A stretch of 64,000 nt of DNA from the IMG/VR virus record IMGVR_UViG_3300005534_000011, positions 1 to 64,000 of that record. One strand, written 5' to 3'. Position numbers and translations under genes: made by a program. Shown piece after piece: positions 49,607-58,383 of this stretch. The notes under the pieces were generated by a model. It was not told the origin of the DNA, did not search any database, and was given only the letters and a program-made list of their open reading frames with translations. The stretch comes from a virus. Every line of letters begins with the position of its first letter. Position 1 is the first letter of the stretch.

Positions 49607-49636
49607 TAAAAAAGGGAGCCAATGGCTCCCTTTTTG
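49607..49636. terminator. bidirectional terminator between convergent operons
   Basis: AAAAAGGGAGCC-AAT-GGCTCCCTTTTT. Confidence 0.85.
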
Positions 49637-49643
49637 TTTTCTA

Positions 49644-49817
49644 TCAATGACGGCTTTGTGAGCGCAGACATTGAAGTTCGTTTGCTACGATTGTGTACTT
49701 AGAGCAATCTGGTGTAACACCAGCGGCTGGTTGGTATGTTTCTGGAACTACTGGACCACCACACGCACTAAGCAAGGCAGCGGTCATCAAGACCATGCCA
49801 ATAACTACTGTTTTCAT
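49644..49817 (-). CDS. 57-aa lipoprotein (not in ORF track)
   Basis: MKTVVIGMVLMTAALLSAC lipobox; two further Cys; AGGG RBS. Confidence 0.65.
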   Translation of the reverse strand: MKTVVIGMVLMTAALLSACGGPVVPETYQPAAGVTPDCSKYTIVANELQCLRSQSRH

Positions 49818-49839
49818 TCGATATAACCCTTAATTATAA

Positions 49840-50589
49840 TCACCAGATATCATACGAGAAATATTTATCGCTGATATTCTTCCATACACCATTGGCACGA
49901 ATTGTATCAATGGCGCTATTCATTGCGGTCAGTTGTTGAGGATCAGTTTTACGAACTGCCATCCCAATTCCATGCCCGTAGTATTTAGAATCGTGAATCT
50001 GTCCACCTACGCAGCTAAACCCTTTACCTTGTGGAGTTTGAAGGAATCCAAAATCAACTTCGATCAATGGTCCCATCACACCATCTAGGCGAGTGTTAGC
50101 AGCTTCTAGGAAGGCTTCTTGTTGGCTTGTATATGATACAACCTTGACACCTTGCGGTTTCAGTACACCATTGGCATATGATTCGTCGGTTGACCCGCGC
50201 AACACACCAATGGTTTTACCAATCGGACTAACACCATCCCGCATTACTGTGCAAGATGCTTCGTGGTAATAGCTTTTGGTAAAGTCAATTACTTTCATCC
50301 GGGCGTCTGTAATAGACATCGCGGTGATGATTGTATCAATTTTCTTGGACTGTAGAGCCGGGATCAACCCATCCCAATCCATTGGCACGAACTCACAGGT
50401 TTTATGCATTTCCGCACAAACTGCAAGTGCAATGTCCACATCAAATCCCTTTACAACACCATCATTACCCATTGATACAAATGGGGGGAGGGTTGTATCA
50501 ACGCCCACTTTCAGGGTGTCACCAGCGCTCGCTGTAAAAGATACCATCAATGCGGCAGCAGCCATCAAACCAACAAAAATCTTATTCAT
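49840..50589 (-). CDS. polar amino-acid ABC transporter substrate-binding protein (HisJ/ArgT-like, SBP family 3)
   Basis: Signal peptide; PPF, GFDVD, WDGLIPAL...KID, MSIT..R...DFT, G.G.AVRK, I..KYF. Confidence 0.9.
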   Translation of the reverse strand: MNKIFVGLMAAAALMVSFTASAGDTLKVGVDTTLPPFVSMGNDGVVKGFDVDIALAVCAEMHKTCEFVPMDWDGLIPALQSKKIDTIITAMSITDARMKVIDFTKSYYHEASCTVMRDGVSPIGKTIGVLRGSTDESYANGVLKPQGVKVVSYTSQQEAFLEAANTRLDGVMGPLIEVDFGFLQTPQGKGFSCVGGQIHDSKYYGHGIGMAVRKTDPQQLTAMNSAIDTIRANGVWKNISDKYFSYDIW

Positions 50590-50604
50590 TCTCAATTCTC
50601 AAAA

Positions 50605-50895
50605 TTAGTTAATATTACAAACAACACCGATCAGACTTGTTAGAGCCTGTGGTTTTGGGGTAGGAGGCGGATATAATGCATCCAATTCACGTTTAACCAA
50701 TGTACCAATCGAAATTTGTAACATGGTTGCAGAAGCGTTGCTATCCGGTGCGATAGATTCCATATGATATGTACGTTGAATGGTGTATGGGGATACATCC
50801 ATCAAGGTAATATCAATTGCATGGGGATCGACGTTGATATCAACGTTAACAATCCCGAGCGTAAAATCAACCGAAGTTATTTTAAATGTATTCAT
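50605..50895 (-). CDS. hypothetical protein (possible tail-associated)
   Basis: Coupled within the late tail operon. Confidence 0.55.
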   Translation of the reverse strand: MNTFKITSVDFTLGIVNVDINVDPHAIDITLMDVSPYTIQRTYHMESIAPDSNASATMLQISIGTLVKRELDALYPPPTPKPQALTSLIGVVCNIN

Positions 50896-51854
50896 TTCCA
50901 AACAATTTCCCAATTTGCGGATATAGAACTTACCCTATGGAAATCATAGGTGGTTGTACATACCTGATCGTTCATTGCCGTGAACCGGGTTTTACCGGGC
51001 CAGATAGGCTCAAACTTGAGGATGTCAGCGATCAGTTCCTTGTACTGATATTTATACTGGTCAATTCCAACCCCAGCTTTTTCGCTAGCGTCTTTCTGTG
51101 ACCATCCCTCAAATTCTGGGGTATTGAAGAATGCAATATAGCCTTTACCGGGTGGTTGCATGCCCAATTGGACCATAAATTCCAATTCGTCACGGTCCCA
51201 TAGACAGCTAAAATCAATCCACCATGCAAGATTTGCAGCGGTCATAGCTACCGGTATACTATCGGTTAACGGTTTCAGCTTTTTTAACTGAACATCGGCC
51301 CAGTGCTCAGTATTTCCGGTATACCTAGCAATCAATTCTTGTGGGGTCATATCCCAAATATCGGTATAAATTTGTGGATCTTTCATATCATCCAAAAATT
51401 CCCCAACCAATATTGAATCCGCATGAGTTCCGGTGATAACCATCCCACCTCTTTCAGTGACCGAATGAAGAGATTCTAAAGTAATGTCTTCAAATTCGGC
51501 ATACTGTTGAATCCACTCAATAACTTTTGGATCAGCATCAATATCTGATTGTTCCGATCTGGTAAGAGTAATCTTCTGAGTGGTTTTCATACTGCATAGG
51601 TATACCGCAACCAATGTTGAATCCACCCCACCGGAAAACATGATATGAATATCATCGTAATTGGCTAAAATCCATTTTGCTCTGTTCAAACAAGCTTGAT
51701 GGAACGATATATCAGATTTAGGTGCAATTGGTGTATGAATGTATGGATATATTCCGGCGATTCTTGGAATTACGATTGCATTGTTGGTGACATCGGAAAT
51801 TGCCAATCCGAATGAAGATGATTTTACCCATCTGTTATGATATCTGTATGTCAT
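50892..51854 (-). CDS. PP-loop ATP pyrophosphatase, asparagine-synthetase C-domain-like
   Basis: IMFSGGVDST and VITGTHAD motifs; no glutaminase domain. Confidence 0.7.
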   Translation of the reverse strand: MTYRYHNRWVKSSSFGLAISDVTNNAIVIPRIAGIYPYIHTPIAPKSDISFHQACLNRAKWILANYDDIHIMFSGGVDSTLVAVYLCSMKTTQKITLTRSEQSDIDADPKVIEWIQQYAEFEDITLESLHSVTERGGMVITGTHADSILVGEFLDDMKDPQIYTDIWDMTPQELIARYTGNTEHWADVQLKKLKPLTDSIPVAMTAANLAWWIDFSCLWDRDELEFMVQLGMQPPGKGYIAFFNTPEFEGWSQKDASEKAGVGIDQYKYQYKELIADILKFEPIWPGKTRFTAMNDQVCTTTYDFHRVSSISANWEIVWK

Positions 51855-51855
51855 A

Positions 51856-52728
51856 TTACGCCACCGACCCTGAATAATTACTTGTATTACCAATATAGCT
51901 ACTTACATTACCCCAACCGAGATACGCATATCCAGCGGCACCCCCACCACCAGCCGGACCCGCCACGCTCCAACTACATGTAGAGCCATCATAAGAACCT
52001 GCACCACCGGGAGCACCAGCAGCACCCCAACCACCGCCCCAACCACCCCAACCACCGGCACCAGAAACACCGGGTGCAGTTCCACCGGATTGGGCAATAG
52101 CAAATCCTTGGCCGTTACCGCCGTTACCGCCCCCTGATATTAAGCAAATCGGACCACGGTCACCACCGCCGCTACTGGCATAACCACCAGCACCGCCACC
52201 ACCGCCACCACCGCCGCCGCCATATACCCAACCACCGTTGATATACATGGTAATAGAGCCACCGGCAATAGCAAAAAACTGTAAAGCGTAGCCACCGGCA
52301 CCACCGGCACTACCACCCCACCCAGCATTAGCAGATGCACCAGCAGCACCTAAGCCGCCATATGCTTGAATAGTCCCACGTAGTTCAATTGTGAGTGCAG
52401 TTCCAGTCGGCCATGATCCTATAACACATGCTGGATTCCCTGTAGCGTAAGAATACATGGTCCCAGATAGGATTAGATAAACTTTTGGTTGGTTGTTGTA
52501 TCCATATGCGTTAGCAATTGATCGGAGATTACCATTTTGGGCATCCCCGATAGTTAGTGTAAATGTATTTGACTTGCTTTGTAGATTTGACATTGAAATC
52601 TGACCGGACGGTACTAATGCCAGAGTACGCACCGCAGTATCATTTAAACTTGAATTAGCCCGATTGTAGGCTAACCCAAGTTCGGCGTTAACATCCGAAA
52701 TGGCGATTTGGCCTGATGGTGTTGTCAT
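51856..52728 (-). CDS. 38: tail fibre adhesin (T2/T6 gp38-like receptor-recognition protein)
   Basis: N-terminal SGQIAISDVNAELG..VR.LA..PSG.IS attachment domain; poly-Gly motifs (YGGGGGGG); directly after the fibre gene. Confidence 0.75.
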   Translation of the reverse strand: MTTPSGQIAISDVNAELGLAYNRANSSLNDTAVRTLALVPSGQISMSNLQSKSNTFTLTIGDAQNGNLRSIANAYGYNNQPKVYLILSGTMYSYATGNPACVIGSWPTGTALTIELRGTIQAYGGLGAAGASANAGWGGSAGGAGGYALQFFAIAGGSITMYINGGWVYGGGGGGGGGGAGGYASSGGGDRGPICLISGGGNGGNGQGFAIAQSGGTAPGVSGAGGWGGWGGGWGAAGAPGGAGSYDGSTCSWSVAGPAGGGGAAGYAYLGWGNVSSYIGNTSNYSGSVA

Positions 52729-52772
52729 GTTTGTTACTCAATAGGTTGAATTTTCTAATGGTATTTATCAAA

Positions 52773-52797
52773 TAAAAAAGGGGCCAATTGGCCCCTT
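52773..52797 (-). terminator. Rho-independent terminator after the tail fibre gene
   Basis: AAGGGGCC-AATT-GGCCCCTT plus a T-run on the - strand; GATAAATA late-like promoter follows (52762-52769). Confidence 0.75.
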
Positions 52798-52802
52798 ATG
52801 AA

Positions 52803-55800
52803 TTACTTGCTAATTGCCTCGATCAATGCCGCGACTTGTTGTTTTAGAGCCTGAATTTCCTTATCCTGCTCTTTAATTGCTTCGACCAATACCGGCACCA
52901 ATCTCTCATATTTCAGAGTTAGATAATGTTCACCTGATTTGGATTCACCTTTAACATCGGTAACATCAAAGGGTGCCTGTTCAACCGCTTGTGGGGTTGT
53001 TGCTTGGATATCCTGTGCCAACAGACCAATTTCTTCTTTGGTTGGATCATATCCGAATGTAGCAGCCAATGCGTTAGCGTTGTAGCTATACCCAGTCCAA
53101 GATTTAACAGTTTCCAATGCGTTAGCAATTGGTTTCAGATTTTCTTTCAGACGTTTGTCAGAGTAATATGCGGTTACGTTACCGGTTGCCGCAATATCGG
53201 ATGCTACATAAAACGCTTTACCACCGTAAACACGAACCCATGTAGTATCCTGCATGAAGATACCACCGCCGTAATCGTTGTTGTACCATCCTGTAGCCCC
53301 TGTAGACCTCCACCAGCTACTATTGATGGTTGTACCACTAAAGGTATGAGTACCGGTATAAGACCCTGTACCACTAGCTGTGAACGCCCCTGCAACAGAT
53401 ACGCTGGAGTTGAATGTCCAAGCTGAACCTGATGCAATCGCACCAGTCGCCAATGTCATGATCAATGGGCGGTTGGTGTTATATGAACCATACTGATCAG
53501 CAGATGCTGTTTGCATCAGATATAGGTTTGTACCATCATTTCGCCAGAATGTTCCGTAGTTGCCTTGAACCATTCTATAGCTGTTGATTGCACTTGATTG
53601 CACTTCACCCGCAAACAGGTTGTTTCTATCCAATTTCGCGGTGTTACTATCAATACCAGCCGTCGATGTAACAGTTAACCCAGTTTCACTGGTGATGATC
53701 GATGCATCCCATGTGCCGGTATCCCACCCGGTGGCTGTGGCCCCAGTCCATGCAAGATTTACATCTTTAACGAATACCGTAGGGTACGACCATACCGAAG
53801 TAGCAGTACCAATCAGAATACAGTTGTTAGTACCATCATGAGCAAATCTAACAGATTGACCAATCGCATTTGCATTACCGTTGTTGGTTGATGCGGATGT
53901 GTATAACCATGTTGCAGGTGCTACCGAATAGTTATACCCGGCTACAATCAACTCACTATTACTTCTACCAACCGCACCCTCATTAATACCAACCGCCATT
54001 TTCAGCATGGTGTTGTTATAACCAACCGGTAACACAATTTTCAGAGTACCTGTAATTGTTGCACTACCACCACCAACAAACTTGGATAATACCATGTCGT
54101 AAGTTTTGGTATTGGCTACCTGATGTGAAATCGGACCTGTAAGAAGTCCGCCAGTTGTTGGAAGCTTAGTCGAATCTGTTACCGTGATGTTAGCAGTCCC
54201 ATCAAATGGAACACCATTGATGGTCCGTGGGATGTTAAGTTTACTTGCAGCAGTTGATAGTCCGTTGATATTGATACTGTAAGTCGATCCCGGAATAATA
54301 GCAGAAATGCTAATCCAGCTCGACCAAACACCTACACCCGGATCATATTGTCTAAATTGAACCGATGGGTTACCACTGTACAAATACGCAAATTGGAATC
54401 TAGCCGATGTATTCGAAATAGACTGCGACCAGACGGTACTGATATACCAATATGATGCACCACCATCCGGGGTATTCACATGGTTGGTTACGATCAGGTT
54501 TAATGCAGTTACGTTCGGGTCATCACCAACTAATGCAACAGCGGTATTCTGTGACATCTGAGCGGCGATTACACCACCTACTTTGTATGTATCTAATGCT
54601 TTATCAACGGTAGTGCCATAAATCTGCAAGAACTTTGCATCAGCTTCGGCTTTACTGTAAACACTCAACGAACCACGAGCGGCAACAGGGTCTGCAATAT
54701 CTGCCAAGTTCTGAGTCTTTTTCAGATACGCGGAACCATGGTTAAGCGTTTCCCAAACATATTTCGCACCGATGTATCCACGATAAATGAAAGTTACCAC
54801 CATACCGTTATCTGTGGTCGCATATGTAGCAGATGTTAGACCATCCAACAACATATTTGAGGTGTTTGGAACTGTGATTGTTACCGGGAATGATGCTGTA
54901 CTAATAGCCGCTGTTACAATATCACCAATCTTAACTTGATCTACTGGCGGTAGCAGAATATTAGATGAAACCACACCGGATAGGGTTACCAAGGTGTTTG
55001 GAACCATTGAGCCCGAAGTCATTACAGGTACGGATTTGGTATCATTGAGATTGATAACCGCCCATTCCCCACCTTTGTACATGAATAGGGTTCTACCACG
55101 CTGCTTTATTCGGAAGGTGGTGGTGTTTTGTAACGCACCGTTAACCCGGAAATAAGCACTACCTGTTGCAGTTACTACCAACGACCCTGATGTAACAGTA
55201 TCTTGATATCTGGTATTAACCTCAACCCAATCACCATCATACATAGTGGCGTTGTTAGGCAGGTTCAAGACTTTGTTGGTTGTATCCAATGTAACAAATA
55301 CAGATTGGTTTGTTAATGGAGCCAACGTCTCTGTCATACGACCTGATTGGGCATTTGAATATGCCATCCATGAACCGGATACCGAATCATAGATCAGGGT
55401 AACCATTGCAGCAGTTCTGGTCATAACAATGGATGGGCTACCATTGATGTTTTTACCGTTACCGTTGATGGTGATGTTAAAGTTAGAACATTGACCCAAT
55501 CCATCAGCAACTACTACCCATTGACCCTGAACCGGGTTAATAGGAAGAATAACAGTTACAGGGGATGTTGAAAGTTGAACGTTGTTCCAAGTGTTCGGGG
55601 CCACAACTGTGTTGACCGAAACCAATTGATATTGAGGTTTGGTTACACGAATAACTCTCCAAGTACCACCCAAGAATACCAATTGAGTTGTATCAGATGA
55701 GTTGATCTGATAGTTAGAAACCCCTGTGTTGTTGAATGTGTTAGTACCGGCACTCAAGATGATAGGGTTGGTTGAAGCTGTCCCTTCATCAATGATGTAA

Positions 55801-56192
55801 ACCATATCCCCTTCTTTGGCATAAATTGGAAGGGTAACTGTCACGGATGTTGCTGCGGTGTTTAGCAATAGGCAATCGCCGGGCTCTGCTGTATACGCAC
55901 CGGTAATTCTCTGCCATAGATTGAATGCGTGAATTTCCTGCCACGCTGTTAGATCAAATGGGCCTAATACTGTAGCAATCTTGGACTTGTATAAACGGTT
56001 TGATCGTTCAACGACAAATCCAATCGGATATGTTCTGGTTGGATCATAGGTTTGTACTGTGTTCTTTGCGATCAAATATTCAATATTGACTGCATCCATC
56101 GGATTGATTGGGTCACCTACGTTGATGACCTGTGCGCCGTTTGCATCAACGCCCAATCTTGCTTTAAATGGTTTTGCTTGTGGTCCGCTCAT
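52803..56192 (-). CDS. 34: long tail fibre protein: gp34-like N-terminus, gp37-like distal part, C-terminal peptidase S74 chaperone
   Basis: F.A..G.DA.G..VINV....DAVN..YL...NTVQ.YDPTR.Y (T4 gp34 N-terminus); YGTFWRNDG.NLYL (gp37/H-type); SDKRLKEN...GL.AQD...L.Y..LV..L.EAIKE (S74); GAGGT RBS before ATG 56192. Confidence 0.85.
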   Translation of the reverse strand: MSGPQAKPFKARLGVDANGAQVINVGDPINPMDAVNIEYLIAKNTVQTYDPTRTYPIGFVVERSNRLYKSKIATVLGPFDLTAWQEIHAFNLWQRITGAYTAEPGDCLLLNTAATSVTVTLPIYAKEGDMVYIIDEGTASTNPIILSAGTNTFNNTGVSNYQINSSDTTQLVFLGGTWRVIRVTKPQYQLVSVNTVVAPNTWNNVQLSTSPVTVILPINPVQGQWVVVADGLGQCSNFNITINGNGKNINGSPSIVMTRTAAMVTLIYDSVSGSWMAYSNAQSGRMTETLAPLTNQSVFVTLDTTNKVLNLPNNATMYDGDWVEVNTRYQDTVTSGSLVVTATGSAYFRVNGALQNTTTFRIKQRGRTLFMYKGGEWAVINLNDTKSVPVMTSGSMVPNTLVTLSGVVSSNILLPPVDQVKIGDIVTAAISTASFPVTITVPNTSNMLLDGLTSATYATTDNGMVVTFIYRGYIGAKYVWETLNHGSAYLKKTQNLADIADPVAARGSLSVYSKAEADAKFLQIYGTTVDKALDTYKVGGVIAAQMSQNTAVALVGDDPNVTALNLIVTNHVNTPDGGASYWYISTVWSQSISNTSARFQFAYLYSGNPSVQFRQYDPGVGVWSSWISISAIIPGSTYSININGLSTAASKLNIPRTINGVPFDGTANITVTDSTKLPTTGGLLTGPISHQVANTKTYDMVLSKFVGGGSATITGTLKIVLPVGYNNTMLKMAVGINEGAVGRSNSELIVAGYNYSVAPATWLYTSASTNNGNANAIGQSVRFAHDGTNNCILIGTATSVWSYPTVFVKDVNLAWTGATATGWDTGTWDASIITSETGLTVTSTAGIDSNTAKLDRNNLFAGEVQSSAINSYRMVQGNYGTFWRNDGTNLYLMQTASADQYGSYNTNRPLIMTLATGAIASGSAWTFNSSVSVAGAFTASGTGSYTGTHTFSGTTINSSWWRSTGATGWYNNDYGGGIFMQDTTWVRVYGGKAFYVASDIAATGNVTAYYSDKRLKENLKPIANALETVKSWTGYSYNANALAATFGYDPTKEEIGLLAQDIQATTPQAVEQAPFDVTDVKGESKSGEHYLTLKYERLVPVLVEAIKEQDKEIQALKQQVAALIEAISK

Positions 56193-56257
56193 TATTACCT
56201 CGGTGTCACTTTCGACCGGTTTGTTTAGAAGCAGACGATAATCTGCTATGATATGTA

Positions 56258-56265
56258 TATTTATA
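56258..56265 (-). promoter_or_regulatory. T4-type late promoter
   Basis: TATAAATA upstream of the tail fibre gene. Confidence 0.75.
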
Positions 56266-56307
56266 GGGGAGAATTTGATGGAAAAGGATTCGAAACAAAA
56301 TTTCATC

Positions 56308-56902: not shown

Positions 56903-57808
56903 GTGAGTTTAGCGGAATTTCTTGGTGAAGAAGAACGAAAATCGGGTTTGATGATCGTTGACTTCTCCCAAATCATCATCAGTACAATCAACGCGACATT
57001 CCGACCAACCGAAGAATTATCGGTAGACCTGATTCGTCATGTTGCATTGAACTCGATTCGTTTCAATGTCCTTTCCAACAAAGCTATCTACCCGGATATC
57101 GTTCTGGCGTGTGACCGTGGGCCATATTGGCGGAAAGAGATTGCACCATATTACAAAGCCCACCGAAAAGACCAACGGGATGAATCCGGTTGGGATTGGA
57201 AAGTCATATTTGAAGCAATGAATCAGGTGCGTGAAGAACTGCATTTGATCTTTCCTTATAGGACTATCCAGATTCAAGGAATTGAAGCGGATGACATTGC
57301 CGGGGTTCTGACCCATCAGCTATGGCACAAATATGATAGAATCCTTCTGGTTTCGTCTGATAGTGACTGGGCTCAGTTGTCCAAATTCAAGAACGTCAAG
57401 CAATGGTCACCGATTCAGAAAAAGTGGGTCGAACCTAAGCATGGGTCTGCGCATTTGCATTTGATGGAAAAGGTTATCAAGGGTGATTCTAAGGATTGTA
57501 TTGCCAGCATCAAATCTGTTTCAGACCATTTGATGAATTTCCGGGATACCAGACAGAAATCCATCATGCAAAAAGAGCTTGATATCTGGTTACATAATCC
57601 GGTCGAGGACTGGGCCACCGATGAGTTCACAATCAATCGATACTATGAGAATTTGAAATTGTTGGATTTGGGTCTAATCCCCCAAGAGATTCAGGACAAA
57701 ATAATGGCTGCATTTAACGAACCACGTCCAAACGGGGCTAAAATTTTTGATTATTTTGTTAAGCATCGACTAAAGGAAATGATCGGTCGAATAGGTGAAT
57801 TCGTGTGA
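56903..57808 (+). CDS. rnh: T4 RNase H (5'-3' flap exonuclease)
   Basis: DFSQI, YWRK....YK..R, EADDI, SSD.D..QL, KGD.KD. Confidence 0.95.
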   Translation: MSLAEFLGEEERKSGLMIVDFSQIIISTINATFRPTEELSVDLIRHVALNSIRFNVLSNKAIYPDIVLACDRGPYWRKEIAPYYKAHRKDQRDESGWDWKVIFEAMNQVREELHLIFPYRTIQIQGIEADDIAGVLTHQLWHKYDRILLVSSDSDWAQLSKFKNVKQWSPIQKKWVEPKHGSAHLHLMEKVIKGDSKDCIASIKSVSDHLMNFRDTRQKSIMQKELDIWLHNPVEDWATDEFTINRYYENLKLLDLGLIPQEIQDKIMAAFNEPRPNGAKIFDYFVKHRLKEMIGRIGEFV

Positions 57809-58383
57809 CCAAATTGGTTTATGGAATTGGTATATCAGATCCGGGTCAATATTTTAGTAGGGTTGATGGTAAACACACGGATGAATACCAATTATGGGTC
57901 CGGGTGCTTCAGCGTTGCCAATCTGGTGGGTTGTTTCAGACCAAACAGCCAGCTTATATAGGCTGTTCGGTTCACCCTGATTTTATCAGATTCCAATGGT
58001 TCGCGGAATGGTGTAACAACCAGATTGGATTTGGATTGAAAGGGTGGGCCTTGGATAAAGACATTTTGATCCAAAGCAACAGGGTGTATGGTCCTGATAC
58101 GTGTTGTTTTGTACCGAAGCAATTAAATCAGTTGTTGGCCCACAAACGATCGAATCAAGGATTGCACCCAACCGGTGTTAGCTATTTCAGAAATCGTGGA
58201 AATTATATAGCTCAGATAGGTATTGACGGTAAAAATAAAACTCTTGGATATTTCGAAACCCCAGAGTTGGCCGAAGCTGCTTATAAAATAGCTAAAACAA
58301 ATGACATTCGTAGACAAGCTGAACTCTGGAAAACGCAGATTGATCCTAGAGTTTATGTTGCCCTTCTAAAATATGAGGTGTGA
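57805..58383 (+). CDS. HNH-type homing endonuclease with AP2-like domain
   Basis: YIGCSVHPDF..FQ.F, LDKDIL....VYGPDTC, LGYFETPE.A. Confidence 0.8.
   Translation: MTKLVYGIGISDPGQYFSRVDGKHTDEYQLWVRVLQRCQSGGLFQTKQPAYIGCSVHPDFIRFQWFAEWCNNQIGFGLKGWALDKDILIQSNRVYGPDTCCFVPKQLNQLLAHKRSNQGLHPTGVSYFRNRGNYIAQIGIDGKNKTLGYFETPELAEAAYKIAKTNDIRRQAELWKTQIDPRVYVALLKYEV

Follow-up and report, generated by a model that had tools for sequence, protein, structure and literature searches.

What is an enzyme resembling asparagine synthetase doing in the gene cluster that builds the tip of a phage tail fiber? The question is posed by a stretch of viral DNA of 64,000 nucleotides (positions 1 to 64,000 of IMG/VR record IMGVR_UViG_3300005534_000011; the window hereafter), in which a gene at 50892-51854 encodes a 320-aa AsnB-like protein and directly follows the genes for a long tail fiber and a glycine-rich, adhesin-like protein. 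An earlier reading of these letters, made from the sequence alone, had drawn attention to this gene and raised the possibility that its product modifies the adhesin, the fiber or the host receptor. The evidence assembled below points to a stand-alone, divergent adenylating enzyme that belongs to a large viral family and recurs, together with the same partners, in an unrelated phage. We tentatively favor the view that the enzyme targets a protein of the receptor-binding tip, one of whose carboxylates it adenylates and then converts into an amide or an isopeptide.

Motifs, fold, and family of the enzyme

The sequence-only reading had described a protein with SGGVDST and TGxxAD motifs and without a glutaminase domain. 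Both motifs are present, the first at residues 74 to 80 and the second, in the form TGTHADS, at residues 141 to 147. The glutaminase domain is indeed missing: the protein is only 320 aa long, has no N-terminal Cys, and neither it nor any of its neighbors matches a GATase model. The boundaries given for the reading frame were correct, and the strand to which they apply is the minus strand, the plus-strand frame being full of stops. Compared with relatives of 58-89% identity, the ratio of nonsynonymous to synonymous substitution rates (dN/dS) is 0.06-0.17 and the catalytic motifs are invariant; these ratios, which reflect purifying selection, indicate that this is a real, working gene.

Standard domain models barely register the enzyme. 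A Pfam scan yielded no Asn_synthase match and DUF7411 alone, at 13.5 bits; the NCBIfam models for AsnB (TIGR01536) and LarE (TIGR00268) reached 12.9 and 19.9 bits against cutoffs of 267 and 150, in either case over the PP-loop region only; and the enzyme failed every one of the curated AsnB, NadE, and QueC models. Weak matches to PF00733 were seen in just 12 of 71 relatives, the best at 2.5e-6. PHROGs offers no family for the enzyme or for the 96-aa protein encoded next to it, PADLOC returned noise-level matches only (CARF3, 18.7 bits; QatC, 13.6 bits, the latter for a paralogue of the enzyme in Pseudomonas phage Cygsa01), and single-sequence searches of the PDB found no match for the enzyme or the adhesin-like protein.

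Profile and structure comparisons are more telling. A profile of 71 sequences, searched against the PDB, recovered human asparagine synthetase first (1e-4), followed by LarE, NadE, TilS, and GMP synthetase. When the AlphaFold2 (AF2) model of the enzyme (pLDDT 67, pTM 0.69) was compared with solved structures using VIA-align, the closest was the C-terminal domain of human asparagine synthetase, ASNS (9b6c; Z 11.7, root-mean-square deviation 3.8, 189 aligned residues), followed by beta-lactam synthetase (Z 10.6), carbapenam synthetase (10.6), TsnB9 (10.1), and then LarE, with E. coli AsnB (1ct9) at Z 8.8. Nearly all of the top 30 structural matches are PP-loop enzymes. Foldseek gave weak E-values on the same model (1e-3 or worse), the VIA-align result being the clearer of the two. 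By its SGGxDS loop and the Rossmann-like fold of its model, the enzyme is a member of the PP-loop ATP pyrophosphatase (adenine nucleotide alpha-hydrolase) superfamily, and the structure and profile searches together bear out the earlier proposal of an AsnB-type adenylating fold that lacks a glutaminase.

The pattern of conservation is informative as to which parts of this fold have been retained. Five residues, S74, G76, D78, D146, and K268, are the same in all of the 71 sequences, whose identity goes down to about 20%, and the close subfamily of 22 sequences additionally shares an invariant R31, H144, W212, W219, D222, and W251; there is no conserved cysteine in the aligned 22 or 71 relatives, and with it no counterpart to the catalytic Cys of the sacrificial sulfur transferase LarE. 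In a profile alignment, TGTHAD falls on the SGEGSD motif of AsnB, with Thr143 at the position of the AsnB Glu. That position is variable in the family (T, V, M, H, Y, S, N), and the His144 and Asp146 that follow are invariant in the subfamily. We consider the enzyme to have an AsnB-class fold in which the ATP site is probably intact and the acceptor site has been re-tooled.

An exhaustive HMMER search over 1.84 billion representatives detected 206 homologues at E <=1e-3, of which 16 reached <=1e-30, nearly all of them 300-400 aa in length. In the ESM Atlas, the clusters around the enzyme are viral and have 804, 95, and 61 members, one of them bearing the automatic name 'Asparagine synthase family protein', and the next structural neighbors are cellular Asn_synthase clusters (TM 0.55-0.63). 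Judging from these comparisons, the enzyme is one of a large, uncharacterised family that is almost purely viral and comprises about 200 clusters at 50% identity.

The enzyme gene in a fiber-tip module

The genes around the enzyme are listed below from the fiber gene onward, with the basis of each assignment in parentheses.

52803-56192, minus strand: long tail fiber gene, about 1129 aa from the ATG at 56192 (Pfam and PHROGs hits)
51856-52728, minus strand: glycine-rich gp38-family adhesin-like gene, 290 aa (Pfam GP38 matches of its relatives)
50892-51854, minus strand: stand-alone divergent AsnB-type PP-loop adenylating enzyme, 320 aa, of the type termed PP1 (motifs, profile and structure searches)
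50605-50895, minus strand: 96-aa partner gene, in ATGA overlap with the enzyme gene (predicted fold; homologues in the close clade and Cygsa01)
49840-50589, minus strand: orphan periplasmic solute-binding protein (SBP) of the SBP_bac_3 family, accessory to the unit (present in L004, not in L003/L005)
49644-49817, minus strand: 57-aa open reading frame (ORF) at the downstream end of the adhesin unit

The sequence-only reading had noted that the enzyme starts 1 bp past the stop of the gp38-like gene, and this gap is confirmed, with the TAA of the adhesin-like gene at 51858-51856 and the ATG of the enzyme at 51854-51852. At its other end, the TGA of the enzyme (50894-50892) overlaps the ATG of the 96-aa gene (50895-50893) in the ATGA arrangement. 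On the evidence of these junctions, the enzyme gene is translationally coupled to both the adhesin-like and the 96-aa genes.

The same gene order, namely fiber, gp38-like gene, enzyme, and small gene, is kept in four non-redundant IMG/VR relatives, L002, L003/L005, and L004 (58-72% identity). L004 has tandem paralogues of the enzyme, PP2 (L004:9081-10004) followed by PP1, and its junctions between the adhesin, PP2, PP1, and small genes are each a 4-nt overlap. Among 50,697 GenBank phage records, the enzyme family was found only in Cygsa01, an unrelated 166-kb Pseudomonas myovirus, which has the only members from a cultured phage. Past its baseplate genes, Cygsa01 encodes, in order, a 531-aa protein, a 278-aa glycine-rich protein, PP2, a 90-aa protein, and PP1. 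Its PP1 is 41% identical to the window enzyme, its adhesin N-domain 40% and its small protein 28% identical to their counterparts, and the C-terminus of the 531-aa protein is 29% identical to the tip of the window fiber. As all four parts have diverged to a similar degree, they appear to have moved and been kept as one module. The PP2 of Cygsa01 (L001:7799-8707) has degenerate motifs (SGGVDC, GCFGD), whereas those of the L004 PP2 are intact. The tandem PP2/PP1 arrangement could reflect a heterodimer. PP2 is absent from the window phage, whose only copy is PP1.

A survey of gene neighborhoods, proposed earlier as a check on linkage with adhesins, gave a divided answer. Throughout the close clade, as in Cygsa01, a gp38-like gene immediately precedes that of the enzyme within a co-inherited fiber-tip module; in the wider family, at about 25% identity, it is found mostly in other contexts, and gp38-like relatives without the enzyme also exist. 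The PP1/PP2 subfamily is thus firmly linked to the adhesin, whereas for the family at large such a link is unproven.

As for the partners themselves, about 125 residues at the N-terminus of the 290-aa adhesin-like protein form a conserved domain; the rest is glycine-rich, and Gly makes up about 30% of the whole. Our own hmmscan of this protein gave no match to PF05268, which a precomputed database table does list for it and for its relatives; the missing match is probably due to composition filters. Two relatives with an overall identity of about 42-43%, P0176 and P0181, clear the Pfam GP38 cutoff of 25 bits, at 37.7 and 32.8 bits, with alignments that run from position 10 to position 216 of the 218-position model, and through them the gp38-like label previously given to this neighbor can be upheld. 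The N-domain is also encoded directly past the long fiber gene in Pelagibacter phage HTVC008M, Vibrio phage PhiImVa-1, and Rhizobium phage Pasto; since it follows fiber genes in three different phage families, adhesin-like fiber-tip protein is a fair label. The fiber combines a gp34-like N-terminus, a Gp34_trimer domain, and a C-terminal Peptidase_S74 domain, a self-cleaving intramolecular chaperone, as recognized by Pfam and PHROGs. The 96-aa protein is confidently modeled (pLDDT 86) as a beta-beta-beta-alpha unit, its helix being long, with a conserved PPPxPKP stretch behind it. Its homologues are confined to the close clade and Cygsa01, and hhalign relates it neither to the adhesin N-domain nor to the helical partner seen in the wider family. 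The SBP is an orphan amino-acid-binding protein with no permease or ATPase near it, and its equivalent in L004 has a clear signal peptide.

Contexts of the wider viral family

At about 25% identity, the family is represented in at least 199 IMG/VR loci, from which 118 non-redundant ones were analyzed. Some 30 intermediate clusters (P0012-P0042), at 30-45% identity, come from contigs between 26 and 266 kb in length. Directly upstream of the enzyme, 47 loci encode a helical protein of about 210-250 aa; it falls into two sequence groups, which are mutually related at an hhalign probability of 95%. In 20 loci, a cupin is encoded directly downstream. The further neighbors include 2-oxoglutarate (2OG)-oxygenase-like and FA_desaturase-like proteins, radical SAM enzymes, GNATs, SBPs of the DctP/TctC families, ThyX, ribonucleotide reductase, and sometimes the large terminase. 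From its gene content, this neighborhood looks like a conserved phage cluster of tailoring enzymes.

The cluster with the helical partner and the cupin is found in L006-L139, with examples at L012:5007-5846, L135:7036-7773, and L140:8906-9757. The DctP/TctC proteins are encoded within four genes of the enzyme in about 25 of the 118 non-redundant loci (e.g., L135:8895-9920 and L067:1244-2209). Three unrelated SBP families (SBP_bac_3, DctP, and TctC) are hence seen beside one enzyme family. Glycine-rich adhesin-like proteins are encoded two to five genes upstream of the enzyme in six distant loci, in two of them right past a tail fiber gene.

What the enzyme may act on

By analogy with the fold to which it is assigned, the enzyme would bind Mg-ATP via SGGVDST and Asp146 and adenylate a carboxylate with release of pyrophosphate (PPi). 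The acyl-AMP would then be resolved by ammonia or an amine, giving an amide or an isopeptide; a glutaminase is not present. Likely substrates would be the adhesin, the new C-terminus of the fiber that arises from S74 self-cleavage, or the 96-aa partner. The catalysis, along with the nature of the substrate and product, is what we infer; translational coupling and the co-inheritance of the module between unrelated phages make a receptor-tip protein the most likely substrate. More broadly, the shared gene set suggests an ATP-dependent step in the building or servicing of the receptor-binding tip. Enzymes of asparagine-synthetase-like (AS-like) type that act on peptide carboxylates are known, among them PesC, TsrC, ScdTA, and AsnO (PMC13060819). 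With its substrate deduced from coupling and co-inheritance, modification of the adhesin or fiber is the best-supported reading of the locus, and it stands as a candidate that we would rate somewhat short of an even chance. A more particular form of it, which we regard as possible and rather doubtful, is a covalent, ATP-dependent maturation of the tip, wherein the enzyme and the 96-aa protein, joined by PP2 in some phages, would cap or cyclise the adhesin or weld it to the fiber. The target carboxylate would then be one of the gp38-like adhesin or the C-terminus of the fiber exposed by S74. If this were true, the wider family and the genes around it (helical partner, cupin, oxygenases, radical SAM enzymes) would amount to a phage-borne toolkit for the tailoring of proteins or peptides.

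Several observations weigh against a modification of the tip. The Glu of the SGEG motif is absent, its place being taken by Thr143, so that the chemistry may differ from that of textbook AsnB. The adhesin fold does not need the enzyme, for relatives of its N-domain in HTVC008M, PhiImVa-1, Pasto, and L165 do without it. Conservation of the module is seen in two independent lineages only and could reflect a single transfer. Distant members of the family are mostly not beside adhesins, and the glycine-rich proteins near them (14 of 1961 genes) correspond to a rough base rate of about one per genome, with no clear enrichment. Comparison of the 96-aa model with solved structures gave nothing that reaches Z 5, the best being Z 4.9, and no leader-like or recognition element was identified. 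Of the partners typical of lasso systems, no leader protease, precursor peptide, or recognizable RRE was found among the neighbors; the 96-aa protein, lacking a fold match, may or may not act in the manner of an RRE or of ubiquitin.

The alternative that survives best, though we hold it to be unlikely, is that the enzyme is a small-molecule amide synthetase, an auxiliary metabolic gene that joins a free carboxylate (aspartate or another imported acid) to ammonia and has settled in a moron hot spot at the end of the fiber operon. The nearest solved folds do use small molecules, the next gene in the enzyme's own unit encodes an orphan periplasmic amino-acid-binding protein, and SBPs that bind carboxylates (DctP, TctC) recur within four genes in the proportion of loci given above. 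Some neighbors in the wider family likewise have a metabolic look (ThyX, ribonucleotide reductase, the cupin, and the FA_desaturase-like protein). However, the enzyme fails all of the curated AsnB, NadE, and QueC models and lacks the SGEG Glu. The SBP is absent in L003 and L005, while the adhesin, enzyme, and small protein remain together. Moreover, neither the coupling nor the co-transfer with the adhesin and the small protein seen in Cygsa01 would be expected of a free-standing metabolic gene.

Less probable still is a modifier of the host envelope or receptor, the other target that had been proposed for this enzyme. It would amidate a carboxylated precursor (a uronic acid, a peptidoglycan stem peptide, or the lipopolysaccharide core) in the infected cell, so that the progeny are not trapped on debris or superinfection is blocked, and it would travel with the adhesin so as to match the receptor; we deem both the activity and this purpose improbable. 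AsnB homologues are indeed known to amidate O-antigen uronic acids (WbpS) and peptidoglycan meso-diaminopimelate (AsnB1, LtsA), and in phage T5 the gene for a receptor-blocking lipoprotein adjoins that of the receptor-binding protein. Co-inheritance of the enzyme with a receptor-binding module across unrelated phages and the exported SBP in its unit fit such a role. Yet the known envelope amidators keep the glutaminase domain and pass the Asn_synthase models, neither of which is true of the enzyme. The promoter-like elements suggest late expression, which would leave little time for remodeling of the surface, and no glycosyltransferase, flippase, or cell-wall gene is near.

A PP-loop enzyme that modifies tRNA or another nucleic acid, like MnmA, TilS, or TtcA, is highly improbable. 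In its favor are the PP-loop motif itself, TilS and NcsA among the weaker structural matches (Z 6-8), and the GenBank annotation of the Cygsa01 homologues (PP179332.1, 11421-13570) as 'tRNA-specific 2-thiouridylase MnmA' (mnmA, mnmA_2). Thiolation of tRNA needs a catalytic Cys or Fe-S ligands and is contradicted by the lack of any Cys conserved in the family. There is also no NCBIfam or Pfam match to MnmA, TilS, or TtcA and no RNA-binding domain, the AsnB-class folds score clearly higher, and the window has no tRNA genes. The MnmA label on the Cygsa01 proteins, which neither sequence nor fold bears out, was rejected.

Equally hard to credit is a non-catalytic assembly chaperone that retains only the nucleotide-binding fold: T-even fibers do need dedicated chaperones (gp38 in T4, gp57A) and the second paralogue of Cygsa01 is degenerate, but the PP-loop Ser/Gly/Asp, Asp146, and Lys268 do not vary anywhere in the family, which contradicts a purely structural role, the PP2 motif of L004 is intact, and the fiber already has its own S74 intramolecular chaperone.

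Source phage and transcription of the locus

The window is contained in a 75.9-kb IMG/VR record with a completeness rating of 44%, and only one run, a soil metagenome, contains the stretch in full. The presence in this record of rIIA, rIIB, and genes for a gp59-type helicase loader and an exonuclease identifies the source, by gene content, as a T4-like phage. An HNH homing-endonuclease-like gene (57805-58383, plus strand) lies between the exonuclease gene and rIIA.

The signals that may govern transcription of the fiber gene and of the adhesin unit are as follows.

56258-56265, minus strand: T4-type late-promoter-like box TATAAATA, 66 nt upstream of the fiber start codon (motif match)
52778-52797, minus strand: intrinsic-terminator-like hairpin (GGGGCC...GGCCCC plus a T run) past the fiber gene (conserved in relatives)
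52762-52769, minus strand: GATAAATA, a late-promoter-like element about 34 nt upstream of the gp38-like start (putative function)
49609-49635, no strand assigned: bidirectional terminator-like hairpin past the 57-aa ORF, closing the minus-strand unit

The earlier description of the locus as a late operon holds insofar as late-promoter-like elements are seen, from which its late expression may be presumed. Boxes of the TATAAATA type occur four times in the window against 2.4 expected, and the position of the one ahead of the fiber gene is suggestive, not significant. The longest ORF for the fiber begins at 56306 (full span 52803-56306, minus strand) and includes this box in its extra 5' part. 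Homologues of the fiber align only from residue 39 of that ORF, and because of this and the location of TATAAATA inside the 5' extension, the shorter gene starting at ATG 56192 is likely to be the real one. Ahead of the gp38-like gene, the hairpin and the TAAATA core of the (G/C)ATAAATA element are kept in all five relatives. From these motifs, the unit would run from a late promoter through the gp38-like gene, the enzyme, the 96-aa gene, and, as accessory parts, the SBP and the 57-aa ORF to the terminator.

Peat metatranscriptome contigs (four runs of one study) from a relative about 90% identical to the window match long pieces within 49680-56252 and cover the fiber gene and the block of SBP, small gene, and enzyme. 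One contig of 2340 nt spans 49680-51980, i.e., the SBP, the small gene, the enzyme, and the 3' end of the adhesin gene. This is compatible with a single transcript and is weak evidence for one, as the strand is not shown and DNA carry-over is possible; gaps in the coverage, such as that in the glycine-rich repeat region, carry no meaning. Contigs of this degree of identity also indicate that related phages occur in peat besides soil.

Significance

Tail-fiber tips decide host range, and their assembly is generally regarded as requiring nothing beyond chaperones and self-cleavage. If an enzyme were to spend ATP on the adhesin or fiber, both virion maturation and the engineering of host range would gain a new layer. 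In our literature search, no account of an enzyme of this kind next to a fiber gene came up: the enzyme class is known, and the stand-alone viral family, the altered second motif, the partners, and the placement in a fiber-tip cassette are undescribed in the searchable literature. Whatever the substrate, there is here a large viral enzyme family with conserved catalytic residues and no characterised member. Cygsa01, essentially its sole cultured representative, provides an experimental handle in a Pseudomonas syringae system.

Comparison with known systems

Like the window enzyme, the QueC-like defense enzymes Cap9 and QatC are PP-loop enzymes; their substrate is a partner protein. Here the resemblance is at noise level (Cap9, Z 6.0), and the enzyme differs in having neither their Zn-binding cysteines nor TGT or nuclease partners and in being encoded by a phage. 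Closer in setting is the gp38 module of the T2/S16 type in the Straboviridae. The window neighbor falls in the GP38 family via its relatives and is likewise located past the distal fiber gene; the window fiber, on the other hand, has an S74 self-cleaving chaperone, and we know of no gp38 module that is accompanied by an ATP-dependent enzyme.

With the class II asparagine synthetases (E. coli AsnB, 1CT9; human ASNS), the enzyme shares the SGGxDS loop, the Mg-binding Asp of the second motif, and the alpha/beta fold. In contrast to them, it lacks the N-terminal nucleophile (Ntn; Cys1) glutaminase and starts with MTYRYH, it is only about 12-15% identical, its SGEG Glu is replaced by Thr143 followed by the invariant His144, and it has a Trp-rich C-terminal half whose conservation is specific to the family. 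Beta-lactam synthetase, carbapenam synthetase, and TsnB9 match the predicted fold at Z 10.1-10.6, and their logic of adenylation followed by attack of an amine would be expected of the enzyme as well. They keep an N-terminal domain, dead or live, act on small molecules, and are encoded in biosynthetic clusters, whereas the enzyme is a single domain of 320 aa in a phage structural operon. The AS-like peptide enzymes (lasso cyclases, TsrC, ScdTA, AsnO, and PesC) furnish the precedent for adenylating a carboxylate of a ribosomal peptide (PMC13060819), and, like the wide viral family, they adjoin tailoring enzymes of the oxygenase type. They are reported to have a conserved Glu-Tyr dyad, the Glu of which, with the Tyr, is needed for activation of the carboxylate (PMC13060819). 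In the enzyme, that Glu is not conserved, and the putative substrate, unlike theirs, would be a folded virion protein.

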